A DNA stretch of 64,000 nt from a virus: IMG/VR virus record IMGVR_UViG_3300032011_003203, positions 17,265-81,264 of that record, one strand, 5' to 3'. Below, one piece after another: positions 11,529-20,261 of the stretch (position 1 is its first letter; each line of letters opens with the position of its first letter). The notes under the pieces were generated by a model. The model did not search any database. It was given only the letters and a program-made list of their open reading frames with translations, and was not told where the DNA came from. The position numbers were made by a program, and so were the translations under genes.

Positions 11529-11532
11529 CAAT

Positions 11533-12312
11533 ATGAAAAAAATACAAATAGAATATTATATAACACTTAATTGTAATTTAGATTGTATTGCGTGTTCTTC
11601 ATTTTCACCATTGGTAAAAAAGAAAACACCACATATAGATTTTGAATATATTAAAAAAGATTTTAAAAAATTATATAAAGTAACAGAAGATGGAGAGAGA
11701 ATATCAGTATTAGTTTTGATGGGTGGAGAACCATTATTGCATCCAAACATAAATCAGATTATTCAATACTTTAGTGAGTTGGGAGTTTCATTGAGAATAG
11801 TTACAAACGGAATATTAATACCAGCAATGGATGATGAGTTCTTTAAGTTGGTTCGTAAATATTCAGTAGAAGTGATTGTATCTATTTATAAAGTATTAAA
11901 ATATGAAAAGGTATTTACAACATTAGATAGTAACAATATACCTTATAGATTATATGACCAAAAAGGAACTTTTGGACATAAGTATCTACATAATGAAAAG
12001 AGAACTCATATAATGGATTGTTGGTATAGAGATAATGTTCATATATTAAAAGATAATAAAATATATACTTGTTCAGAAACTGCATTCTTTAATATATTTG
12101 ATGCAAAATTTAAAGGATTACATAAGTTAAAAATAACTAACGATGATTATATAGATTTGGATGATGTAGAAACTTTTGAAGAGTTGATGAAGTTAAGAAG
12201 TACATCTGTGCCACCACTATGTTACAATTGTGATGGTAGTGAAAAAAGCAAAACAGAATGGGTTCGTTCAGATGGTTCAATAGAAGAATGGTTAAATATA
12301 AAAAGTACTTGA
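11533..12312 (+). CDS. Radical SAM protein with C-terminal SPASM/twitch-like cysteines
   Basis: CNLDCIAC, MGGEPLLHP, IVTNG, IYTC and CYNC. Confidence 0.85.
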   Translation: MKKIQIEYYITLNCNLDCIACSSFSPLVKKKTPHIDFEYIKKDFKKLYKVTEDGERISVLVLMGGEPLLHPNINQIIQYFSELGVSLRIVTNGILIPAMDDEFFKLVRKYSVEVIVSIYKVLKYEKVFTTLDSNNIPYRLYDQKGTFGHKYLHNEKRTHIMDCWYRDNVHILKDNKIYTCSETAFFNIFDAKFKGLHKLKITNDDYIDLDDVETFEELMKLRSTSVPPLCYNCDGSEKSKTEWVRSDGSIEEWLNIKST

Positions 12313-12338
12313 CATTAATAGTAAAAAAGTCGTATATT
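12309..12338 (+). promoter_or_regulatory. Sigma70-type early promoter TTGACA-N18-TATATT
   Basis: Consensus -35 box with the same spacing as the other three copies. Confidence 0.75.
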
Positions 12339-12372
12339 CAAACAATAAACTTAACAGAGGCATAGAAATAAA

Positions 12373-12969
12373 ATGAATTTTAATAATATAGCTCGATATT
12401 TATATACGAGTGTGAAAGATGATTCATATGAATCAATTATGGAAAACATAAGAACATATTTTGGAATTGCGTTTATGGCAATCGTTATCTTTAATGGTTT
12501 CGTATGGACAAAGATTTTTGACAATTACAAGAGTTTTCACCAAGAAACATTGGTGAATTTGACGGACGAAAATAAGAAACTAAAAGAGTTAGTTTCTGAA
12601 CATAACCTTGAGGGGATGAATGTGACAGTAACGATGTATCATCCAGTTTCGCAGCAAACAGACTCCACACCGAACATTCTCGCGGATGGAACGCGAATTA
12701 GGATACACAAAGCTAGTGAGTATCGATACATAGCGGTTAGTAGGAATCTTTTAAAGCGATATGGTGGATGGTTGAATTACGGAGATTTCATTTTACTTAA
12801 AGGTACGGATGGCAAAGATGGTATGTACCAAGTAAGAGATACAATGAACCCAAGATTTGTAAATAGAATAGACATATTGGAATCACCAGGTACTAAACCA
12901 TATAAGTTTGATGTAGCACAAATTTCTCGTTTGCCAGAAGAAAGTCTTGTAACATATAATAATAATTAA
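12373..12969 (+). CDS. Membrane-anchored 3D-domain (MltA/RlpA-like) cell-wall protein
   Basis: TM helix, coiled coil, VTVTMY..QTDSTP, IAVSRNL, VRDTMNPRFVNRIDIL; start may be 12439. Confidence 0.75.
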   Translation: MNFNNIARYLYTSVKDDSYESIMENIRTYFGIAFMAIVIFNGFVWTKIFDNYKSFHQETLVNLTDENKKLKELVSEHNLEGMNVTVTMYHPVSQQTDSTPNILADGTRIRIHKASEYRYIAVSRNLLKRYGGWLNYGDFILLKGTDGKDGMYQVRDTMNPRFVNRIDILESPGTKPYKFDVAQISRLPEESLVTYNNN

Positions 12970-12990: not shown

Positions 12991-14610
12991 ATGAAAAAAT
13001 GGTTTTATGAGAGAAGTAAATTCTCTGAGTTTAAATCGAATACGACTTATCATAAGTTGTTAAAGATGTCAGTAGAAGAGTTTAATGATTGGGCACGATT
13101 ACTTAGACAAGAAGTTACTACTCAATGGGATGAATACGGAACACCACCCGTAATCGGTAAAGATGAAGATGGTATCATTAAGAAATTCAAAAAACTAAAA
13201 GACAATCCTTGTGATTATTTAATTGAAGATAATACTGGTGATGATGAATCACTTGGTATAATTAAGAACTTCAATAAAGATGCGAGTAGTGTTAATCAGT
13301 TCTTTCCAACAATGTTAAAAACAAAAATCAGTATTGGTGCATCAGCCGATAATGGTTTATCTATCTATGACCACTTTGGTGACCCAGAGTTAGAAGATAA
13401 GTTTGTTCACATTATGCGTAGAGCAGTAAAGAAAGATTCTATGTATAGTTGGAGTAGAAGTATCGTAACTAAGAAAGATGAGAATCCTTTTTGGAATGGT
13501 GAGACTGGTAAAGAATTTATTAAGAATGTTTATGATGGTAAAGTTTCTATTGGTAAATATTCAGATACAAGATTTGTACTTGCAAGAGTAAAGAAAAGTA
13601 CAGTCGGTAATTATGGTACTATGAATGAAGAGTTTAAAGGACACGGAAATGTTTATTTAACTGCAGAGGAAGTACAAGATTGTAAGGATAGTGGTTATTT
13701 AAATGATACACAATTAAGTAACATACCAGATATAGTTTCATCTGAAACAAGTAAGACTGGTAAAGTAACTGAGTTCTTATATCTAATTAGACACTATGAT
13801 AAAACTATTGGAATCTTTCCAAAGATATTACAAGTGTTTAGATTAGCGTGTGGACAACCTGCAGTAAACTTTCCACCACTAACAGCAAAACTTTTGTATG
13901 AAAAATTTACAGACCATATAGATAATCAAGAACAAACATTTCATATCTATGACCCATCAAGTGGTTGGGGTGGTAGAATTTTAGGAGCAATGAGTTCTCG
14001 TAAGAATATACACTATGTTGGTACAGACCCTAATCCAGATAATTTAGGTAGATATCAAGCAGTTGCTGATTTCTATAATAATAATTGTGTTGATGATTTC
14101 TCTGAAAACTTTAATAAGTTTTTTGATGTAGAAAAACAATCAAACACATATGAAGTATTTAGTGATGGTAGTGAATTAATATCTAACAATCCAGCATTTC
14201 AAAAATATAAAGGTAAGTTGGATGTAGTATTTACATCACCACCATATTTTAATCGTGAACAATATTCTCAAGATGAGAACCAGTCGTTCAAGGCCTATGG
14301 TGAGTATCAAGACTGGAGAGATAACTTCTTAGAACCCACATTACGAACCGCTTACGAGTATCTAAAGAATGATAGATATATCCTTTGGAACATCGCAAGT
14401 ATCAAAATAGGTGCAAATACTTATTATGATTTAGAGGGTGATAGTAGAAAAATCTTAGAAGAACTTGGGTGTGAATATAAAGGTAAATTAAAAATGTTAA
14501 TGACAAGAATGATTGGGTTAGACCCATCTAAGACTGGAATTTTAAATTCAGTACAACACGATAATAATGTGTATAAGTTTGAACCAATATTTGTGTACTA
14601 TAAAAGATGA
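12991..14610 (+). CDS. DNA amino-methyltransferase (SPPY type, m4C or m6A)
   Basis: Motif I YDPSSGWGGR, YVGTDPN, motif IV FTSPPYF. Confidence 0.85.
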   Translation: MKKWFYERSKFSEFKSNTTYHKLLKMSVEEFNDWARLLRQEVTTQWDEYGTPPVIGKDEDGIIKKFKKLKDNPCDYLIEDNTGDDESLGIIKNFNKDASSVNQFFPTMLKTKISIGASADNGLSIYDHFGDPELEDKFVHIMRRAVKKDSMYSWSRSIVTKKDENPFWNGETGKEFIKNVYDGKVSIGKYSDTRFVLARVKKSTVGNYGTMNEEFKGHGNVYLTAEEVQDCKDSGYLNDTQLSNIPDIVSSETSKTGKVTEFLYLIRHYDKTIGIFPKILQVFRLACGQPAVNFPPLTAKLLYEKFTDHIDNQEQTFHIYDPSSGWGGRILGAMSSRKNIHYVGTDPNPDNLGRYQAVADFYNNNCVDDFSENFNKFFDVEKQSNTYEVFSDGSELISNNPAFQKYKGKLDVVFTSPPYFNREQYSQDENQSFKAYGEYQDWRDNFLEPTLRTAYEYLKNDRYILWNIASIKIGANTYYDLEGDSRKILEELGCEYKGKLKMLMTRMIGLDPSKTGILNSVQHDNNVYKFEPIFVYYKR

Positions 14611-15293
14611 TAGTAATTAAAGCAAACTCACCAACAGATGCTTGGATAAAATCACACGAGTATCTTTTAGAAAATGGTAACAAAGATGTGATGAATGAAA
14701 GTATTAATATGTCGGTAGAGATAGAAGATAACTTTGATACAGAACCTAAGTTCGATGGATTGTTTAGAGAAATCTTTGGTGATGATAGAATAGATTATGC
14801 AAGTTCAGTTACATTTGTTAAACCAACAGAACATCCTTTTATGGATGAATTACAATTCCAACAAAATGATACTAAAGTAAAGTGGAACAAAACTTATTGG
14901 GGTAGAATGATTAATTGGGATAATAGTTTCAATCAAATAGAACAAGTTATAAAAAGATTAAAAGAACATAAGAATAGTAAAACAATTGCAATGAGTATCT
15001 ACGACCCGAAATCAGATGGTAGAAAAACAATGAGTGGAATGCCTTGTTTATTATCAATAGATTTAAAACCAAGAAAAGATGGATTGTATTTAACAGCATT
15101 CTTTCGTAGTATGAGAATTAGTAAGAGTGGTTATGCTGATTGGGTTGCGTTGTGTGAGATGGCAAAGTTCTTATGTGAACAAGCAGATTTAAAATTAAAA
15201 AGAGTTACAACAATTGGTGGTTCAGTTCATCTTGGTGATATGAATAACGAAAAGAAAAATGTCAAGGAGTTACTTAGTGTGTGGAATAGTTAG
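14607..15293 (+). CDS. Thymidylate-synthase-fold protein, dCMP-hydroxymethylase-like
   Basis: YWGR, NQIEQVI, catalytic PC, FRS, Asp at the TS Asn177 position (GYAD), GSVHL. Confidence 0.75.
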   Translation: MIVIKANSPTDAWIKSHEYLLENGNKDVMNESINMSVEIEDNFDTEPKFDGLFREIFGDDRIDYASSVTFVKPTEHPFMDELQFQQNDTKVKWNKTYWGRMINWDNSFNQIEQVIKRLKEHKNSKTIAMSIYDPKSDGRKTMSGMPCLLSIDLKPRKDGLYLTAFFRSMRISKSGYADWVALCEMAKFLCEQADLKLKRVTTIGGSVHLGDMNNEKKNVKELLSVWNS

Positions 15294-16782
15294 TACGGTC
15301 AATCATAGTGATGAAGTTGTACACGATATGTTACTTCAAATTGAACACAGAGGTAGGGATAATCGAGAGATTTTTGAGAGTGGTAATGTTCACCTGGGCC
15401 ACAATAGATTAAGTATAAATGATGTGAGTGAAGCAGGAAATCAGCCATTTGTTTGGAATGATTATGCACTTGTAGTTAATGGTGAGATATGGAACTATCC
15501 ACAATTAAGAAAAGAATATGAAGAACGAGGTTATACATTTTTTAGTAATAGTGATTCAGAAATAATTTTATATCTATACAAAGAAAATGAATTAAAAAGA
15601 TTAGAGGGTATGTTTAGTTTTGTATTGCATGATACCTTAACTAATGAGTTAGTTGTATCGAGAGATTGGGTTGGTAAGATTCCATTATACATTTATAACA
15701 ATGATACAAATATTTTAATTGCATCTGAAATGAAATCAATATTAAAAATATTACCACAAGCAGAATGTAAGTTTGTTCCAAAAAATTCAGTAGTTAGAAT
15801 AAATACAATTACTGGTTCAGTACATATTGATAAAGATTACTATTTTACTTGGACACCATTTGAGGATAAAGAGTTTGACCAAGATGAGGTTAACAAAAAA
15901 ACTTATGAGTTGTTAGATACTGCAGTAGAGAAAAGATTATTAAGTGATGTTAAGGTTGCAACTTGTTTAAGTGGTGGTATTGATTCAAGTGTAATTACTT
16001 ATTTGTTAAGTAAGAAAGTACCTGATATCGTATCTTATACAGTCAAGTTCGATGAGGATTCAAGAGATTTAATGTTTGCAAGAATGGTTGCAGAACATAT
16101 CAATGTACCATTGGTTGAGGTTGAGATACCAAGAGACCCAGAAGAATTAAAAAGAAAATTTTTAGAAACAATAAAGGTTATAGAATATCCATCAACAGTC
16201 CAAATGGAAGTTGGTATTCTACAAAGTTATGTTGCCGAGAAAATGGCAGAGGATGGTGTTAAGGTTGCGTTTAGTGGTGAGGGTTCTGATGAATCGTATG
16301 GTTCATATGGTACATTCAGAATGTTCAGTAAGAAACCAGATTGGAGTGATGTACGAAAGAAATTATTTGAGAAACAATACTATGGTAATTTACTTCGTGG
16401 GAATAATATCTTTATGAATTATGGAACAATAGAATTAAGATGTCCATTCTTTGATTTAGATTTTTTAGATTACACTACTAACCTTACACAACCAGTATTA
16501 GATAATAGTGGAAACCAATGGAAGAAACCACTTGCTGAAGCATTTCGTGGACACTTACCAGATGAGGTATGTGACCAAGAGAAACGAGCATTTCAAAAAG
16601 GAACAAACTTCAAAGAGTATATAGAAGATGTAATTCTAAATGATACAGATATAAATTTTAAAAATAGAAAAAAACTATTTCATTGTATCGGAGATAACTT
16701 TGAAAGAATATTTGGTTTCAAACATAAAGGTATGAGAGATACTTTATCTGGCACTGAAAATGGATTTGGGAAATGGATATAA
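15277..16782 (+). CDS. Asparagine-synthetase-B-like glutamine amidotransferase
   Basis: GTG start gives MCGI (Ntn nucleophile Cys2); HRGRD, LGHNRLSI, NGEIWN, LSGGIDSS, SGEGSDE, ELRCPFFD. Confidence 0.9.
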   Translation: MCGIVSTVNHSDEVVHDMLLQIEHRGRDNREIFESGNVHLGHNRLSINDVSEAGNQPFVWNDYALVVNGEIWNYPQLRKEYEERGYTFFSNSDSEIILYLYKENELKRLEGMFSFVLHDTLTNELVVSRDWVGKIPLYIYNNDTNILIASEMKSILKILPQAECKFVPKNSVVRINTITGSVHIDKDYYFTWTPFEDKEFDQDEVNKKTYELLDTAVEKRLLSDVKVATCLSGGIDSSVITYLLSKKVPDIVSYTVKFDEDSRDLMFARMVAEHINVPLVEVEIPRDPEELKRKFLETIKVIEYPSTVQMEVGILQSYVAEKMAEDGVKVAFSGEGSDESYGSYGTFRMFSKKPDWSDVRKKLFEKQYYGNLLRGNNIFMNYGTIELRCPFFDLDFLDYTTNLTQPVLDNSGNQWKKPLAEAFRGHLPDEVCDQEKRAFQKGTNFKEYIEDVILNDTDINFKNRKKLFHCIGDNFERIFGFKHKGMRDTLSGTENGFGKWI

Positions 16783-17618
16783 TACAAACACCAATAGAAA
16801 CTTATACATTAAATGGTATCGATGTTGATGTCAAGAGAGATGATTTAGTTGGTGATGGAGTTAACTTTCCACGATGGGCAAAGATAGAGGGTATAAGAAA
16901 AATATTAGAGAGTGATGATATTGATAAATCAAAACCACTAACTCACTTATCAGTTTATGGAAGTTGGACTGGATGGACATTAAGTAAGTTGTGTAAAGAG
17001 TATGGTATAGAATTTATTTCTGCTTATCCAGATACACAAAAGTTTCCACAAGTATTGTTAGAACGAGTAGAGGGTAATGGTGGTAAGTTACATCCGATGA
17101 GACCTAATATGATGGCGTTTATGCAAAACAAATTAAACACACAAGCAAAAGAAAATGGTTGGCAACAATTACCATACGCATTCAATCATCCCGCATACAT
17201 TAGTTATATGGGGGCAAGAATGAGAGAAGTTTTAAAAGATAGGGAATATGATAACCTTGTTGTTAGTATTGGTAGTGGTGTTACTGCAAGTGGATTAATA
17301 AAAGAATTTTTAGAGTACGGAGATGATTGGTGGAAGTTAAATAACGAATCAAGAAAAGTTTATTCTATTACGATGAGTGCATTCTCATCAACAAAAAAGA
17401 TTTTAAATGAGAATCACGCTGGTGATTTGAAAAATATAATACTCGAAAAATCACCATATGCATTTGATGATATGATGGATGATTATAAAGTACCATTTGA
17501 TTGTAATGAATTTTGGGACAAGAAACAATGGTATTGGTTAGAGGATAATATACAGAAACTTAAAGGGAAAACTTTATTTTGGAACATTGGTGGTTCTTAT
17601 TTAAATTCAATAAAATAA
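16773..17618 (+). CDS. PLP-dependent enzyme, fold type II (ACC deaminase/D-Cys desulfhydrase-like)
   Basis: VKRDDL, candidate PLP Lys in WAKI, VVSIGSGVTASG phosphate loop, LFWNIGG. Confidence 0.75.
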   Translation: MDIIQTPIETYTLNGIDVDVKRDDLVGDGVNFPRWAKIEGIRKILESDDIDKSKPLTHLSVYGSWTGWTLSKLCKEYGIEFISAYPDTQKFPQVLLERVEGNGGKLHPMRPNMMAFMQNKLNTQAKENGWQQLPYAFNHPAYISYMGARMREVLKDREYDNLVVSIGSGVTASGLIKEFLEYGDDWWKLNNESRKVYSITMSAFSSTKKILNENHAGDLKNIILEKSPYAFDDMMDDYKVPFDCNEFWDKKQWYWLEDNIQKLKGKTLFWNIGGSYLNSIK

Positions 17619-17627
17619 AAAAAACAC

Positions 17628-17657
17628 TTGACTTGTATAGGCAAAAAGCCTTATATT
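17628..17657 (+). promoter_or_regulatory. Sigma70-type early promoter TTGACT-N18-TATATT
   Basis: About 37-bp near-identical repeat of the 5225 promoter. Confidence 0.75.
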
Positions 17658-18724: not shown

Positions 18725-19446
18725 TGCCAAGAAAAGCAAAAAAGGGTTCACCACGATATTACTTTCATCAAGGAACTGAAGATGCAATCATTCGCTTGAA
18801 TAAAGAAACTCGTGCTCATATGAAAGAACGAATTTATAATGAACATATTCGTACACCATTTGAGAAACTTGCTGAGAATATAATTCATACATTTAAGTTT
18901 TATTACTTTGATGTTCCAAGTGAGGATGTTAAACACGAAGTGGTTTCATTCTTATATATGAATATTCACAAATTTGCTGAGGGTAAGGGAAAGGCATTTA
19001 GTTATTTCAGTATTGTTGCTAAGAACTATTTGATTCTACACAACAACAATAATTACAAGAAGATGAAACAACACGATAGTGAGGATGTGATGGATTATAA
19101 AAGAGACCCAGTCACAGAACTTCGTGGTAAAGAATCTCGTAGTATGAAGATGGAGTACATCGAACAACTTGCTGATTATTGGAGAAATAATTTAACTACA
19201 GTCTTTAAACGAAAGAAAGATTTGGATGTTGCTAATTCGGTAGTAGAGTTAATTGATATGAGACATAATATCGATAACTTTAATAAGAAAGCATTATACA
19301 TTCTTATTCGTGAAATGACTGGTTCTAATACACAACACATAACTCGTGTAATTAATGTGATGAAGAAACATCATAACAATTTACACAAGGCATATTTAAC
19401 TACTGGCTCGGTTGATACTAAACGAACTGGTAGTTGGTTTGAGTGA
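18724..19446 (+). CDS. Phage RNA polymerase sigma-like factor (gp55-like)
   Basis: KLAENII, HKFAEGKGKAFSYFSIVAKNYL resembles sigma region 2 of T4-like late sigma factors. Confidence 0.65.
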   Translation: MPRKAKKGSPRYYFHQGTEDAIIRLNKETRAHMKERIYNEHIRTPFEKLAENIIHTFKFYYFDVPSEDVKHEVVSFLYMNIHKFAEGKGKAFSYFSIVAKNYLILHNNNNYKKMKQHDSEDVMDYKRDPVTELRGKESRSMKMEYIEQLADYWRNNLTTVFKRKKDLDVANSVVELIDMRHNIDNFNKKALYILIREMTGSNTQHITRVINVMKKHHNNLHKAYLTTGSVDTKRTGSWFE

Positions 19447-20261
19447 AGTTATATCAACAAGATTGGAATTATCGGAAAAACAATACCGATAAATATCCAG
19501 AGTTAAAAGCTATTACATCATATCCAAATTCTTTTTGGTTAACAAGGAATCCTAAGAAACCAAAACTTGGTAGAAAGTTAACTCATAGTATTCGAAGATT
19601 GTGTAGAAGAGCACATCCAGCTCAACCAGTTATAGTTTTATATGCTATACCTGGTAGAGATATGGGTGGACATTCAAAGGGTGGTTTAACAGAAAAACAA
19701 TATCTAAAATATGTTGGTGATATTGCTTTAGGTATTGGAAATTTTAAACCAATAATTATTTTTGAACCAGATGCAATTCCACATATGAGAAAGATGAATT
19801 TCTTTCAACGAACTAATCGTACAAGGTTGATTAAAAAAGCTTTAGGTTTATTATCAAATACCAATGCACAAGTATATCTTGATATTGGACATCCAAATTG
19901 GTTAAAGAAAACAGATGCTGCAACTTATCTTAATTTATTTAACAAAGGTGATATAAAGGGTTTTTCTATTAATGTGAGTAATTTCGTAACAACAGATAAG
20001 TGTTTACGATATGGTGATAAAATATCTGAAGAAACAAATTTAAATTATGTTATAGATACATCAAGAAATGGTAACGAGGTTTGGGAAACATTCAATCCAC
20101 AAGATATGAAACTTGGTGAAGAACCTACTATCAGAACTAATTCAAGAAAGTGTGATGCTTATCTTTGGATTAAAACACCAGGTGAAAGTGATGGTGCTGT
20201 AAATGGTTGGCCTAAAGCTGGTAGATTTAATGCTAAAAAAACCTTATCTCTTATAAATTAA
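19443..20261 (+). CDS. Glycoside hydrolase family 6 (cellulase-like)
   Basis: YAIPGRD, SKGG, IFEPDA, YLDIGH, GFSINVSNF, YVIDTSRNG, DAYLWIKTPGESDG. Confidence 0.88.
   Translation: MKLYQQDWNYRKNNTDKYPELKAITSYPNSFWLTRNPKKPKLGRKLTHSIRRLCRRAHPAQPVIVLYAIPGRDMGGHSKGGLTEKQYLKYVGDIALGIGNFKPIIIFEPDAIPHMRKMNFFQRTNRTRLIKKALGLLSNTNAQVYLDIGHPNWLKKTDAATYLNLFNKGDIKGFSINVSNFVTTDKCLRYGDKISEETNLNYVIDTSRNGNEVWETFNPQDMKLGEEPTIRTNSRKCDAYLWIKTPGESDGAVNGWPKAGRFNAKKTLSLIN

Follow-up and report, generated by a model that had tools for sequence, protein, structure and literature searches.

A co-conserved four-gene module in viral contigs as a candidate pathway for cytosine hypermodification

Gene content and organization of the locus

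The locus considered here lies in a window of 64,000 nucleotides (nt), which is part of an 81-kb IMG/VR contig of an uncultured marine phage (IMGVR_UViG_3300032011_003203, positions 17,265 to 81,264; contig G000), about 46% complete and with a G+C content of 32%. It consists of four consecutive genes, coding for an amino-methyltransferase-like protein (MT1), an enzyme with the thymidylate synthase (TS) fold, a glutamine-dependent amidotransferase of the AsnB type and a pyridoxal phosphate (PLP) enzyme, which probably cooperate in the modification of cytosine in viral DNA. An open reading frame (ORF) check of the window found all four on the plus strand, exactly at the coordinates that a preliminary description of this DNA had named beforehand. 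The genes and the features next to them are the following; coordinates without a contig name are those of the window.

12991-14610, plus strand: MT1, amino-methyltransferase-like protein, 539 amino acids (aa)
14607-15293, plus strand: TS-fold enzyme, 228 aa
15277-16782, plus strand: AsnB-type glutamine-dependent amidotransferase, 501 aa counted from the GTG codon at 15277
16773-17618, plus strand: gp52-family fold-type II PLP enzyme, 281 aa
17628-18464, plus strand: HD-domain phosphohydrolase (phrog_28876, E 5e-13), the next gene after the PLP gene, as previously described
12931-12960, plus strand: promoter-like site, TTGCCA and TATAAT with an 18-nt spacer, 11/12 matches to the consensus, located 31 nt before the MT1 start

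The overlapping stop and start codons ascribed to the four genes are indeed present: MT1 and the TS-like gene share 4 nt (14607-14610), the TS-like gene, with its stop codon at 15291-15293, shares 17 nt with the AsnB-like gene counted from GTG 15277, and the latter shares 10 nt with the PLP gene (16773-16782). The longest ORF for the AsnB-like protein begins at ATG 15259 (507 aa) and would bring the overlap with the TS-like gene to 35 nt; the true start is GTG 15277, because an AGGAG motif (15264-15268) is found 8 nt upstream and the resulting N-terminus is M-C-G-I-V, obligatory for an N-terminal nucleophile (Ntn) amidotransferase. Orthologues open with MCGI or MMCGI in 45 of 53 cases.

The operon had also been described as flanked by sigma70 promoters. 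The match upstream of MT1 is the joint best in 10 kb, a site with 10 of 12 positions is found before the HD gene (17628-17657), and a second 11/12 match (12309-12338) precedes the upstream gene, which codes for 198 aa; however, such sites are not enriched in the DNA (41 observed, 57 +/- 7 in shuffled sequences), so that the MT1-proximal site is to be read as a consensus match only and the flanking promoters remain weakly supported. RNA libraries from a single study contain contigs that match the locus exactly across all three gene junctions, which fits a single transcript; these contigs may stem from DNA carry-over and are no proof of transcription.

Conservation of the module

IMG/VR was scanned with the TS-like protein, the PLP protein and a profile of the TS-like family, which gave more than 100 loci and 59 distinct TS-like sequences. 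After ORF calling and clustering of all proteins, neighbouring genes were counted at the 35 non-identical loci in which the sequence extends for 4.5 kb or more to either side of the TS-like gene. An AsnB-like or PP-loop protein, a PLP enzyme and a methyltransferase of the MT1 family all occur within 4.5 kb of the TS-like gene at 30 of the 35 loci; only the methyltransferase is missing at 2/35, and a radical S-adenosylmethionine (SAM) protein of about 450 aa takes the place of the PLP enzyme at 3/35. The methyltransferase family is found within this distance at 33 of the 35 loci despite a shuffled gene order, its position being upstream, directly after the PLP gene or after the DNA polymerase gene PolB, with up to four paralogues. 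This co-conservation persists down to 36-50% identity between TS-like proteins, with changes in gene order, and the surroundings of the module differ by lineage: UvdE and late or structural genes in G000; ribonucleotide reductase (RNR), thioredoxin and PolB in most others. The recurrence of the arrangement in dozens of diverged viral contigs goes far beyond chance. Thus, the survey of viral neighbourhoods bears out the proposal that the four genes are a co-conserved unit, and the conserved module is composed of the TS-like gene, an AsnB-like or PP-loop gene, a PLP (or radical SAM) gene and a methyltransferase gene.

Neither the operon (megablast) nor the TS-like protein (tblastn) found a match in 50,697 phage records; no cultured phage in that collection therefore has the module. 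The relatives used for genome comparisons include G001 (complete, 276 kb), G002 (95% complete), G003 and G004 (66% and 59% complete).

Some loci show further variations. Two jumbo-phage relatives, G006 (376 kb) and G007 (290 kb), reached through loci L064 and L082, carry 8-9 PF01555-type methyltransferase genes each, several of them in tandem around the module (MT401-MT387-MT401-TS-PPloop-PLP-MT391). In L048 the PLP gene and an AsnB-like gene, the latter divergent (28% identity), are separated by a D-2-hydroxyacid dehydrogenase-like gene (L048:2101-2958), which hints at a keto- or hydroxy-acid intermediate. The radical SAM protein of about 450 aa, which replaces or accompanies the PLP enzyme, is found at L068:4966-6309, with homologues in L005, L096, L113, L115, L116, L122 and L123; it resembles neither gp53 of Pseudomonas phage M6 nor the product of the radical SAM gene of the window, and its sole match in the PDB, AprD4, is weak (E 4e-4).

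The TS-fold enzyme

The TS-like protein scores 33.6 bits with PF00303, while its best NCBIfam match, the short methanogen-type TS TIGR03283, is below the cut-off (78.6 bits). Its fold, the Pro-Cys nucleophile and an Arg-Ser pair place it in the thymidylate synthase superfamily. Among 20 diverse members of the family the invariant residues are the Pro-Cys nucleophile C147, R167 and S168, which bind phosphate, Y97, H208 and D178. Profile alignments to 9iqu, MilA and T4 TS place D178 on ThyA N177, the residue that switches preference from dUMP to dCMP, where MilA and AfhB have Asp and T4 TS has Asn; the invariant Asp agrees with the dCMP-type TS homologue that had been proposed. Moreover, G001 has in addition a canonical ThyA (316 bits), and the TS-like gene is therefore not the dTMP synthase.

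The cofactor site is less conventional. At the position of ThyA D169, folate enzymes have Asp and flavin-dependent 5-hydroxy-dCMP synthases have Asn, and folate-type dCMP hydroxymethylases combine this Asp with Asp or Glu at the position of ThyA L143 (PMC13326640). In the TS-like family the first position, residue 170, is Arg in 16 of 20 members and Ala in 4 of 20, while the second, three residues before the Cys, is Gly or Lys across the family (Gly in the window protein) and never acidic. Thus, the protein shares the Asp at N177 with the folate-dependent dCMP hydroxymethylases but lacks their Asp169 and acidic residue 143, and it also lacks the D169N replacement diagnostic of the flavin-dependent class; the RSQN motif of AfhB corresponds to RS[MQTS][RA] in the family. 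Instead of the hydrophobic cofactor pocket FLGLPF the family has SKSGYA, in which the Lys and the Tyr are invariant.

An AlphaFold2 (AF2) model of the protein has a predicted local distance difference test (pLDDT) score of 90.8. The closest structural match is AfhB, the flavin dCMP hydroxylase (9IQU; Z 20.2, 198 of 217 residues), followed by MilA (Z 19.4) and the classical TS (Z about 17.5), with TS, MilA and AfhB aligned over about 197-204 residues; the profile score to MilA has an E of 9e-8. The protein is not a hydroxymethylase of the type of T4 gp42, the example named in the preliminary description, considering the absence of Asp169 and of an acidic residue at 143, with AfhB as nearest structure. 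Sequence and model together indicate a putative cytidylate-acting TS-fold enzyme, which would belong to a clade outside both described cofactor classes. Longer, fused forms of the TS-like protein were searched for and none was found, which is weak evidence.

The AsnB-like enzyme

The AsnB-like protein is composed of a GATase_7 and an Asn_synthase domain (E 1e-33 and 1e-42), corresponding to an Ntn glutaminase and a PP-loop adenylating domain. Cys1, R49, N74, E76, D98, the SGGxDS and SGEGSDE motifs and the C-terminal K449 are invariant in 53 orthologues, and the intact glutaminase and adenylation sites are in line with the predicted capacity of this AsnB-fold enzyme to adenylate a carboxylate and form an amide.

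The protein passes the cut-off of TIGR01536 for asparagine synthase (292.5 bits, cut-off 267.1) and matches 1CT9 with an E of 3.7e-46, whereas it is under the cut-off of the AsnB equivalog NF006949 (261.6 versus 499). In the Escherichia coli enzyme, T322, T323, R325 and C523 are assigned to aspartate/ATP binding (PMC5775275); in a single pairwise alignment, which is divergent in this stretch, the first three fall on V314, Q315 and E317, and the viral protein ends before the C523 region. Hence the glutaminase and PP-loop sites of AsnB are present and the aspartate/ATP-binding residues are not. In asparagine synthetase the acidic SGEGSDE cluster holds the ammonium group of the substrate (PMC6748925).

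In about a quarter of the loci the same position is occupied by a PP-loop protein of about 305 aa, homologous to residues 227-391 of the AsnB-like protein (E 5e-13) and devoid of both the glutaminase domain and the acidic cluster. The best match of the AsnB-like protein in a cultured phage is gp124 of Streptomyces phage TurkishDelight (31% identity over 93%), which is flanked by a cytosine C5-methyltransferase (C5-MTase) and a class I methyltransferase, that is, the CmoX/CmoY/CmoA layout. CmoY is an AsnB homologue that ligates glycine to 5-carboxymethylcytosine in DNA, and a second CmoY cluster, bearing a glutaminase domain, is uncharacterised (PMC12783734).

The PLP enzyme

The PLP protein is poorly recognized by general families: its PALP score is below the cut-off (17.7 bits), no NCBIfam match was found, and phrog_7093 is matched with an E of 6e-25. 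Its homology to M6 gp52, on the other hand, extends along the whole protein (28% identity over 273-290 residues, E 1e-28). K37 aligns to gp52 K36, the proposed Schiff-base Lys, and is invariant in 61 family members together with G167, T171 and G174 of the phosphate loop; both proteins also carry a C-terminal PFxCNxF(W/Y)DxKxWxWL segment. M6 gp52 and gp226 of Salmonella phage ViI have been experimentally shown to be decarboxylases of amino-acid adducts on DNA (PMC8989533), and they are the only two members with a known function. Full-length homology, the Lys and the phosphate loop are those of the gp52-type DNA-adduct decarboxylases, as expected from the earlier assignment of this gene to the PLP enzymes of ViI- and M6-type thymidine hypermodification.

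The methyltransferase MT1

MT1 matches PF01555 with 28.1 bits (cut-off 26.7), covering profile positions 2-106 only. Its C-terminal portion is a class I SAM-dependent methyltransferase domain, with motif I D321-x-S-x-GWG-x-R329 and motif IV FTSPPYF (414-420); F[TS]SPPYF is conserved in 77 of 79 family members, and D321, G325 and G327 are invariant. SPPY is a motif typical of N4-methylcytosine (m4C) methylases. In an AF2 model (pLDDT 78) the nearest structures are TrmN (Z 16.1), Trm11 (Z 15.7) and Trm14 (Z 15.0), all (D/N)PPY enzymes acting on exocyclic amines, with small margins over other methyltransferases. The SAM fold, motif I and the SPPY motif IV are those of the N6/N4 amino-methyltransferases of the (D/N/S)PP(Y/F) class. 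For the N-terminal portion of about 290 aa there was no structural match, and the ESM Atlas gave only viral hypothetical look-alikes (score 0.83), to be taken as a lead only; PDB searches by sequence alone with the methyltransferase and the HD protein returned nothing useful. In Staphylococcus, Bacteroides and Vibrio phages the catalytic domain has homologues that occur on their own, annotated as DNA or N4-cytosine methylases.

The cytosine-context signature

Several short palindromes are strongly avoided in G000 (observed/expected: GATC 0/359, ACGT 2/108, CCGG 1/25, CTAG 18/154, CATG 45/295), whereas TGCA and AGCT, in which C always follows G, are not. Of the CATG and CTAG sites that survive, all 63 have the C in 5'-GC or 5'-GAC context on one strand or both; the proportion expected by chance is 0.29. 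When whole contigs were analysed, the CTAG rule was found in all four genomes with MT1 upstream of the TS-like gene, that is G000, G002 (60/60), G003 (36/36) and G005 (28/28), for a total of 142/142 (baseline 0.29). A CATG rule is seen only with the strongest avoidance of CATG: 112/113 sites are in context in G002 (157/158 together with G000), 33/91 in G005 and 87/270 in G003. In G001 there is no CATG rule and a weak CTAG rule (74/185), and in distant carriers pooled together 293 of 571 CTAG sites are in context, versus a baseline of 0.34. A pooled CATG+CTAG test on short loci, which suggested no link to the operon, was overturned by the whole-contig analysis with the two sites separated.

The signature is found at 75/104 in MT1-type loci versus 259/531 in the rest (p 1.4e-5, uncorrected for relatedness), and in G002, 95% complete, MT1 is the sole PF01555-type gene and there is no C5-MTase. 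The context signal is genuine and relates to cytosines in particular sequence surroundings; the MT1 subfamily is the only candidate among the families searched, which did not include other DNA-methylase families. As regards the link between the pathway and a GC/GAC signal that had been suggested for this locus, the signal is present and loosely associates with the MT1 subfamily; this association is correlative only, and a tie to the trio of TS-like, AsnB-like and PLP genes is hypothetical. Since unprotected sites are strongly avoided, any full hypermodification has to be confined to certain contexts, as it is in the M6/ViI systems.

Other compositional features were also observed. Extreme avoidance of GATC, ACGT, CCGG, GCGC, CTAG and CATG was noted for the window and for G000, G002, G003 and G005; GCGC is absent despite its GC context and is unaccounted for by the context rule. 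CAGTG/CACTG is 4- to 8-fold under-represented in G000, G001 and G002, which may be another context-dependent avoidance, and GACTG/CAGTC is 3-fold over-represented in G000.

Neighbouring and absent genes

The HD gene and a radical SAM gene of the window (11533-12312) had been tied to the pathway, but neither is conserved with the module. The HD gene is adjacent to it in 5/35 fully flanked loci, and its homologue in G001 (45% identity) is about 157 kb away, so it was rejected as a module member. HD orthologues in relatives begin at an internal MKSL..., and the protein has no similarity to gp59, the HD protein of M6. The radical SAM gene codes for 259 aa with a viperin/QueE-like N-terminal match; it was rejected as well, having no homologue in 53 related loci and being skipped in the contig of a relative. 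In the latter, 11531-12603 is swapped for 243 other letters, indicating that this gene is a strain-specific cassette, next to a tmRNA. The rare adjacency of the former and the absence of homologues of the latter put both outside the conserved module.

Enzymes of known hypermodification pathways were searched in G000-G004. No match was found to PF18724, the amino-acid:DNA transferase, in a search that recovers M6 gp51 with 159.7 bits, nor to PF18748, the 5-hydroxymethyldeoxyuridine (5-hmdU) DNA kinase, in a search run without a positive control. The module is therefore not the M6/ViI pathway, and the earlier remark that the classic pathways are unmatched in the window extends to G001 and G002. 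CmoA (TIGR00740) and C5-MTases (PF00145) also gave no match in these five genomes.

Upstream of the window, G000 encodes a NodU/CmcH-type carbamoyltransferase (Carbam_trans_N and C domains; L145:1016-2509), beside a UDP-glucose dehydrogenase-like gene. In other phages, 5-carbamoyloxymethylcytosine is the product of enzymes of this class. G001 has a homologue and G002 has none, and the protein was set aside as a partner in a 5-carbamoyloxymethylcytosine model given its absence from G002 and its sugar dehydrogenase-like neighbour. In the same region apt-, metK- and mtnN-like genes stand in a row (L145:5201-7570), with functions in the provision of SAM and the clearing of by-products; G001 has a homologue of metK alone, and G002 of none of the three. 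Two genes downstream of the HD gene, a gene for a cellulase-type glycoside hydrolase of family 6 is found (19443-20261; PF01341, E 2e-43).

Proposed pathway and alternative explanations

The module can be read, with moderate confidence, as a cytosine hypermodification pathway, in which a TS-fold enzyme produces C5-modified dCMP, and amidation, PLP-dependent processing and methylation or context gating by the SPPY methyltransferase follow on DNA. Cys147 of the TS-fold enzyme would attack C6 of dCMP, leading to a C5 substituent, with a cofactor or electrophile that would be neither of the classical folate type nor of the described flavin type. The modified dCMP would then enter DNA through the phage replication genes, which are usually beside the module, and the substituent would be tailored after replication. 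The AsnB-type enzyme may adenylate a carboxylate of the adduct and convert it to a primary amide with glutamine-derived ammonia, a bare PP-loop enzyme standing in for it in some phages; the gp52-type PLP enzyme, replaced in a few phages by a radical SAM enzyme, could decarboxylate or otherwise process an alpha-amino-acid-like part of the adduct. Finally, the SPPY methyltransferase would act on a planar nitrogen, either N4 of cytosine or the new amide or amine, and it probably sets the context, in this lineage 5'-GC and 5'-GAC, with the result that full protection from restriction would be limited to such cytosines. To judge from the enzyme classes, the product is most likely an undescribed amide- or amine-bearing cytosine in viral DNA.

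A more specific version is tentative and rather doubtful: the TS-like protein would found a third cofactor class of the TS superfamily, with a cationic, polar pocket (Arg170, Lys173, Tyr176), and put a carboxyl or amino-acid handle on C5 of dCMP, which would be amidated, decarboxylated and N-methylated or context-gated on DNA, leading to a hitherto unseen, context-restricted (5'-GC/5'-GAC) hypermodified cytosine that would be common among marine phages, jumbo phages included.

Several points weigh against a hypermodification pathway. Every chemical step is inferred from enzyme classes, and one carboxylate cannot undergo both amidation and alpha-decarboxylation, so that two carboxylates or alternative branches are needed; moreover, the PP-loop-only variant has no acidic cluster, and the two forms may differ in chemistry. 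The strong avoidance of GATC, CATG, CTAG, ACGT and CCGG speaks against a bulky group on every cytosine. The context rule itself is site-dependent, as indicated by CATG in G005 (33/91), and G001, which has the trio and an MT1 of 73% identity, shows no CATG rule and a weak CTAG rule. The AsnB-like protein, which passes the asparagine synthase cut-off (292.5 versus 267.1), could be a plain asparagine synthetase, the methyltransferase, whose catalytic domain occurs alone in cultured phages, is possibly an orphan m4C methylase beside the trio, and the RNA contigs are possibly DNA carry-over.

Some of these points find a place in another explanation, namely that an ordinary orphan methyltransferase for m4C, or for N6-adenine, would alone give the GC/GAC protection, and the trio would serve nucleotide and amino-acid metabolism, with dCMP derivatisation for the dNTP pool, asparagine synthesis and amino-acid conversion as its roles, and would travel with replication genes without tailoring DNA. 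The SPPY motif, the stand-alone homologues in Staphylococcus, Bacteroides and Vibrio phages, the retention of all core AsnB residues with a passing TIGR01536 score, the trio of G001 without a CATG signature and the two loci of 35 with a trio and no nearby methyltransferase are all consistent with it. However, the PLP protein is specifically of the gp52 family, with the shared C-terminal segment, rather than a housekeeping fold-type II enzyme, and it has no NCBIfam match; the position of the AsnB-like protein is sometimes held by a PP-loop-only protein, incapable of glutamine-dependent asparagine synthesis; T322/T323/R325 and the C523 region are not conserved; and a methyltransferase of the same family is within 4.5 kb in 33/35 loci despite the shuffled order. 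Taking both sides into account, we consider this explanation unlikely.

The trio could also produce a free modified nucleotide or nucleoside, a small molecule as at the start of the mildiomycin or bacimethrin pathways, in which MilA-type enzymes are active, for host takeover or counter-defence and not for incorporation into DNA. Indeed, the nearest relatives in both structure and sequence include MilA, a CMP hydroxymethylase that belongs to an antibiotic pathway, phosphate binding by R167/S168 points to a mononucleotide substrate, and no dCTPase or dedicated dNMP kinase was identified in a non-exhaustive search. Such a role is improbable for a module that in most lineages is beside RNR, thioredoxin and PolB and has a DNA-methylase-like partner; furthermore, homologues of gp52 and CmoY are known to act on DNA only, and there are no linked export or resistance genes. 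A variant of the M6/ViI thymidine hypermodification on 5-hydroxymethyl-dU, finally, is very improbable, although the gp52-family PLP enzyme is present, a TS homologue and an HD gene occur as in M6, and uncharacterised amidoligase and glutaminotransferase genes are mentioned in such clusters (Lee et al. 2021, PMC8989533): the residue at the N177 position is invariably Asp, not Asn, the genome signature concerns cytosine contexts, and neither PF18748 nor PF18724 is found in G000, in the complete G001 or in the 95% complete G002, the transferase search being able to detect M6 gp51.

Significance and comparison with known systems

Hypermodifications of phage DNA shape the arms race with restriction and CRISPR and provide enzymes for the labelling of DNA and for sequencing chemistry. 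To our knowledge, all well-described amino-acid-type hypermodifications are on thymine and need a DNA kinase and a dedicated transferase. The module combines enzyme classes recently shown to act on DNA or its precursors, namely AsnB-type amide ligases (2025) and non-folate TS-fold enzymes (2025-26), and in the TS-like family an enzyme fold that is among the most thoroughly studied may turn out to have new chemistry. At least 59 distinct viral contigs contain the module, some of them complete genomes of 169-376 kb; the phage of G000 is found in many marine metagenomes and is abundant in several public studies, suggesting that the putative modified base is probably common in the ocean. A literature search found no paper describing this gene set.

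Like the thymidine hypermodification of M6 and ViI (Lee et al. 2018, 2021; PMC5889632, PMC8989533), the module has a TS-fold enzyme for a C5-functionalised pyrimidine nucleotide and a PLP enzyme of the gp52 family (same Lys, 28% identity), which in those phages tailors an amino-acid adduct on DNA; tailoring genes likewise occur in combinatorial variants that include radical SAM enzymes. Differently from it, the module is of the cytosine type, with Asp at N177, and not of the uracil type; it has an AsnB/PP-loop enzyme and an SPPY methyltransferase and no 5-hmdU DNA kinase or amino-acid:DNA transferase, and the radical SAM protein found in some of its variants bears no similarity to gp53.

The CmoA/CmoX/CmoY system of Synechococcus phage S-B43 (PMC12783734) also employs an AsnB-family enzyme, CmoY, that adenylates a carboxylate at cytosine C5 in DNA to give an amide. 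The glutaminase domain of the AsnB-like protein resembles the second CmoY cluster, and its best cultured-phage match, gp124, is part of such a cluster. However, G000-G004 have neither CmoA nor a C5-MTase (CmoX), so that the handle would come from the TS-fold enzyme, possibly with the SPPY methyltransferase, and the module adds a PLP enzyme.

The flavin-dependent 5-hydroxy-dCMP synthases (HY126 AfhB, 9IQU/9IQC; RB69 gp48; DLP3 gp80; PMC13326640) are similarly short (217-234 aa versus 228 aa), and AfhB is the best structural match (Z 20.2, 198 residues), sharing the catalytic Cys and N177D; conversely, D169N is missing in the TS-like protein, which has Arg or Ala, identity is about 20%, and there are no linked glycosyltransferases or arabinose genes. 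T4 gp42, MilA and the 5-hydroxymethylcytosine carbamoyltransferase clusters (PMC8670742) have in common with it the TS fold, the Cys nucleophile and the Asp at N177, with MilA in a near-tie (Z 19.4, E 9e-8); in this case the differences from T4 gp42 and MilA are the lack of Asp169 and of an acidic residue at 143 and the change from FLGLPF to SKSGYA. The gene combination as a whole matches no published pathway and most likely represents a variant of phage DNA hypermodification.

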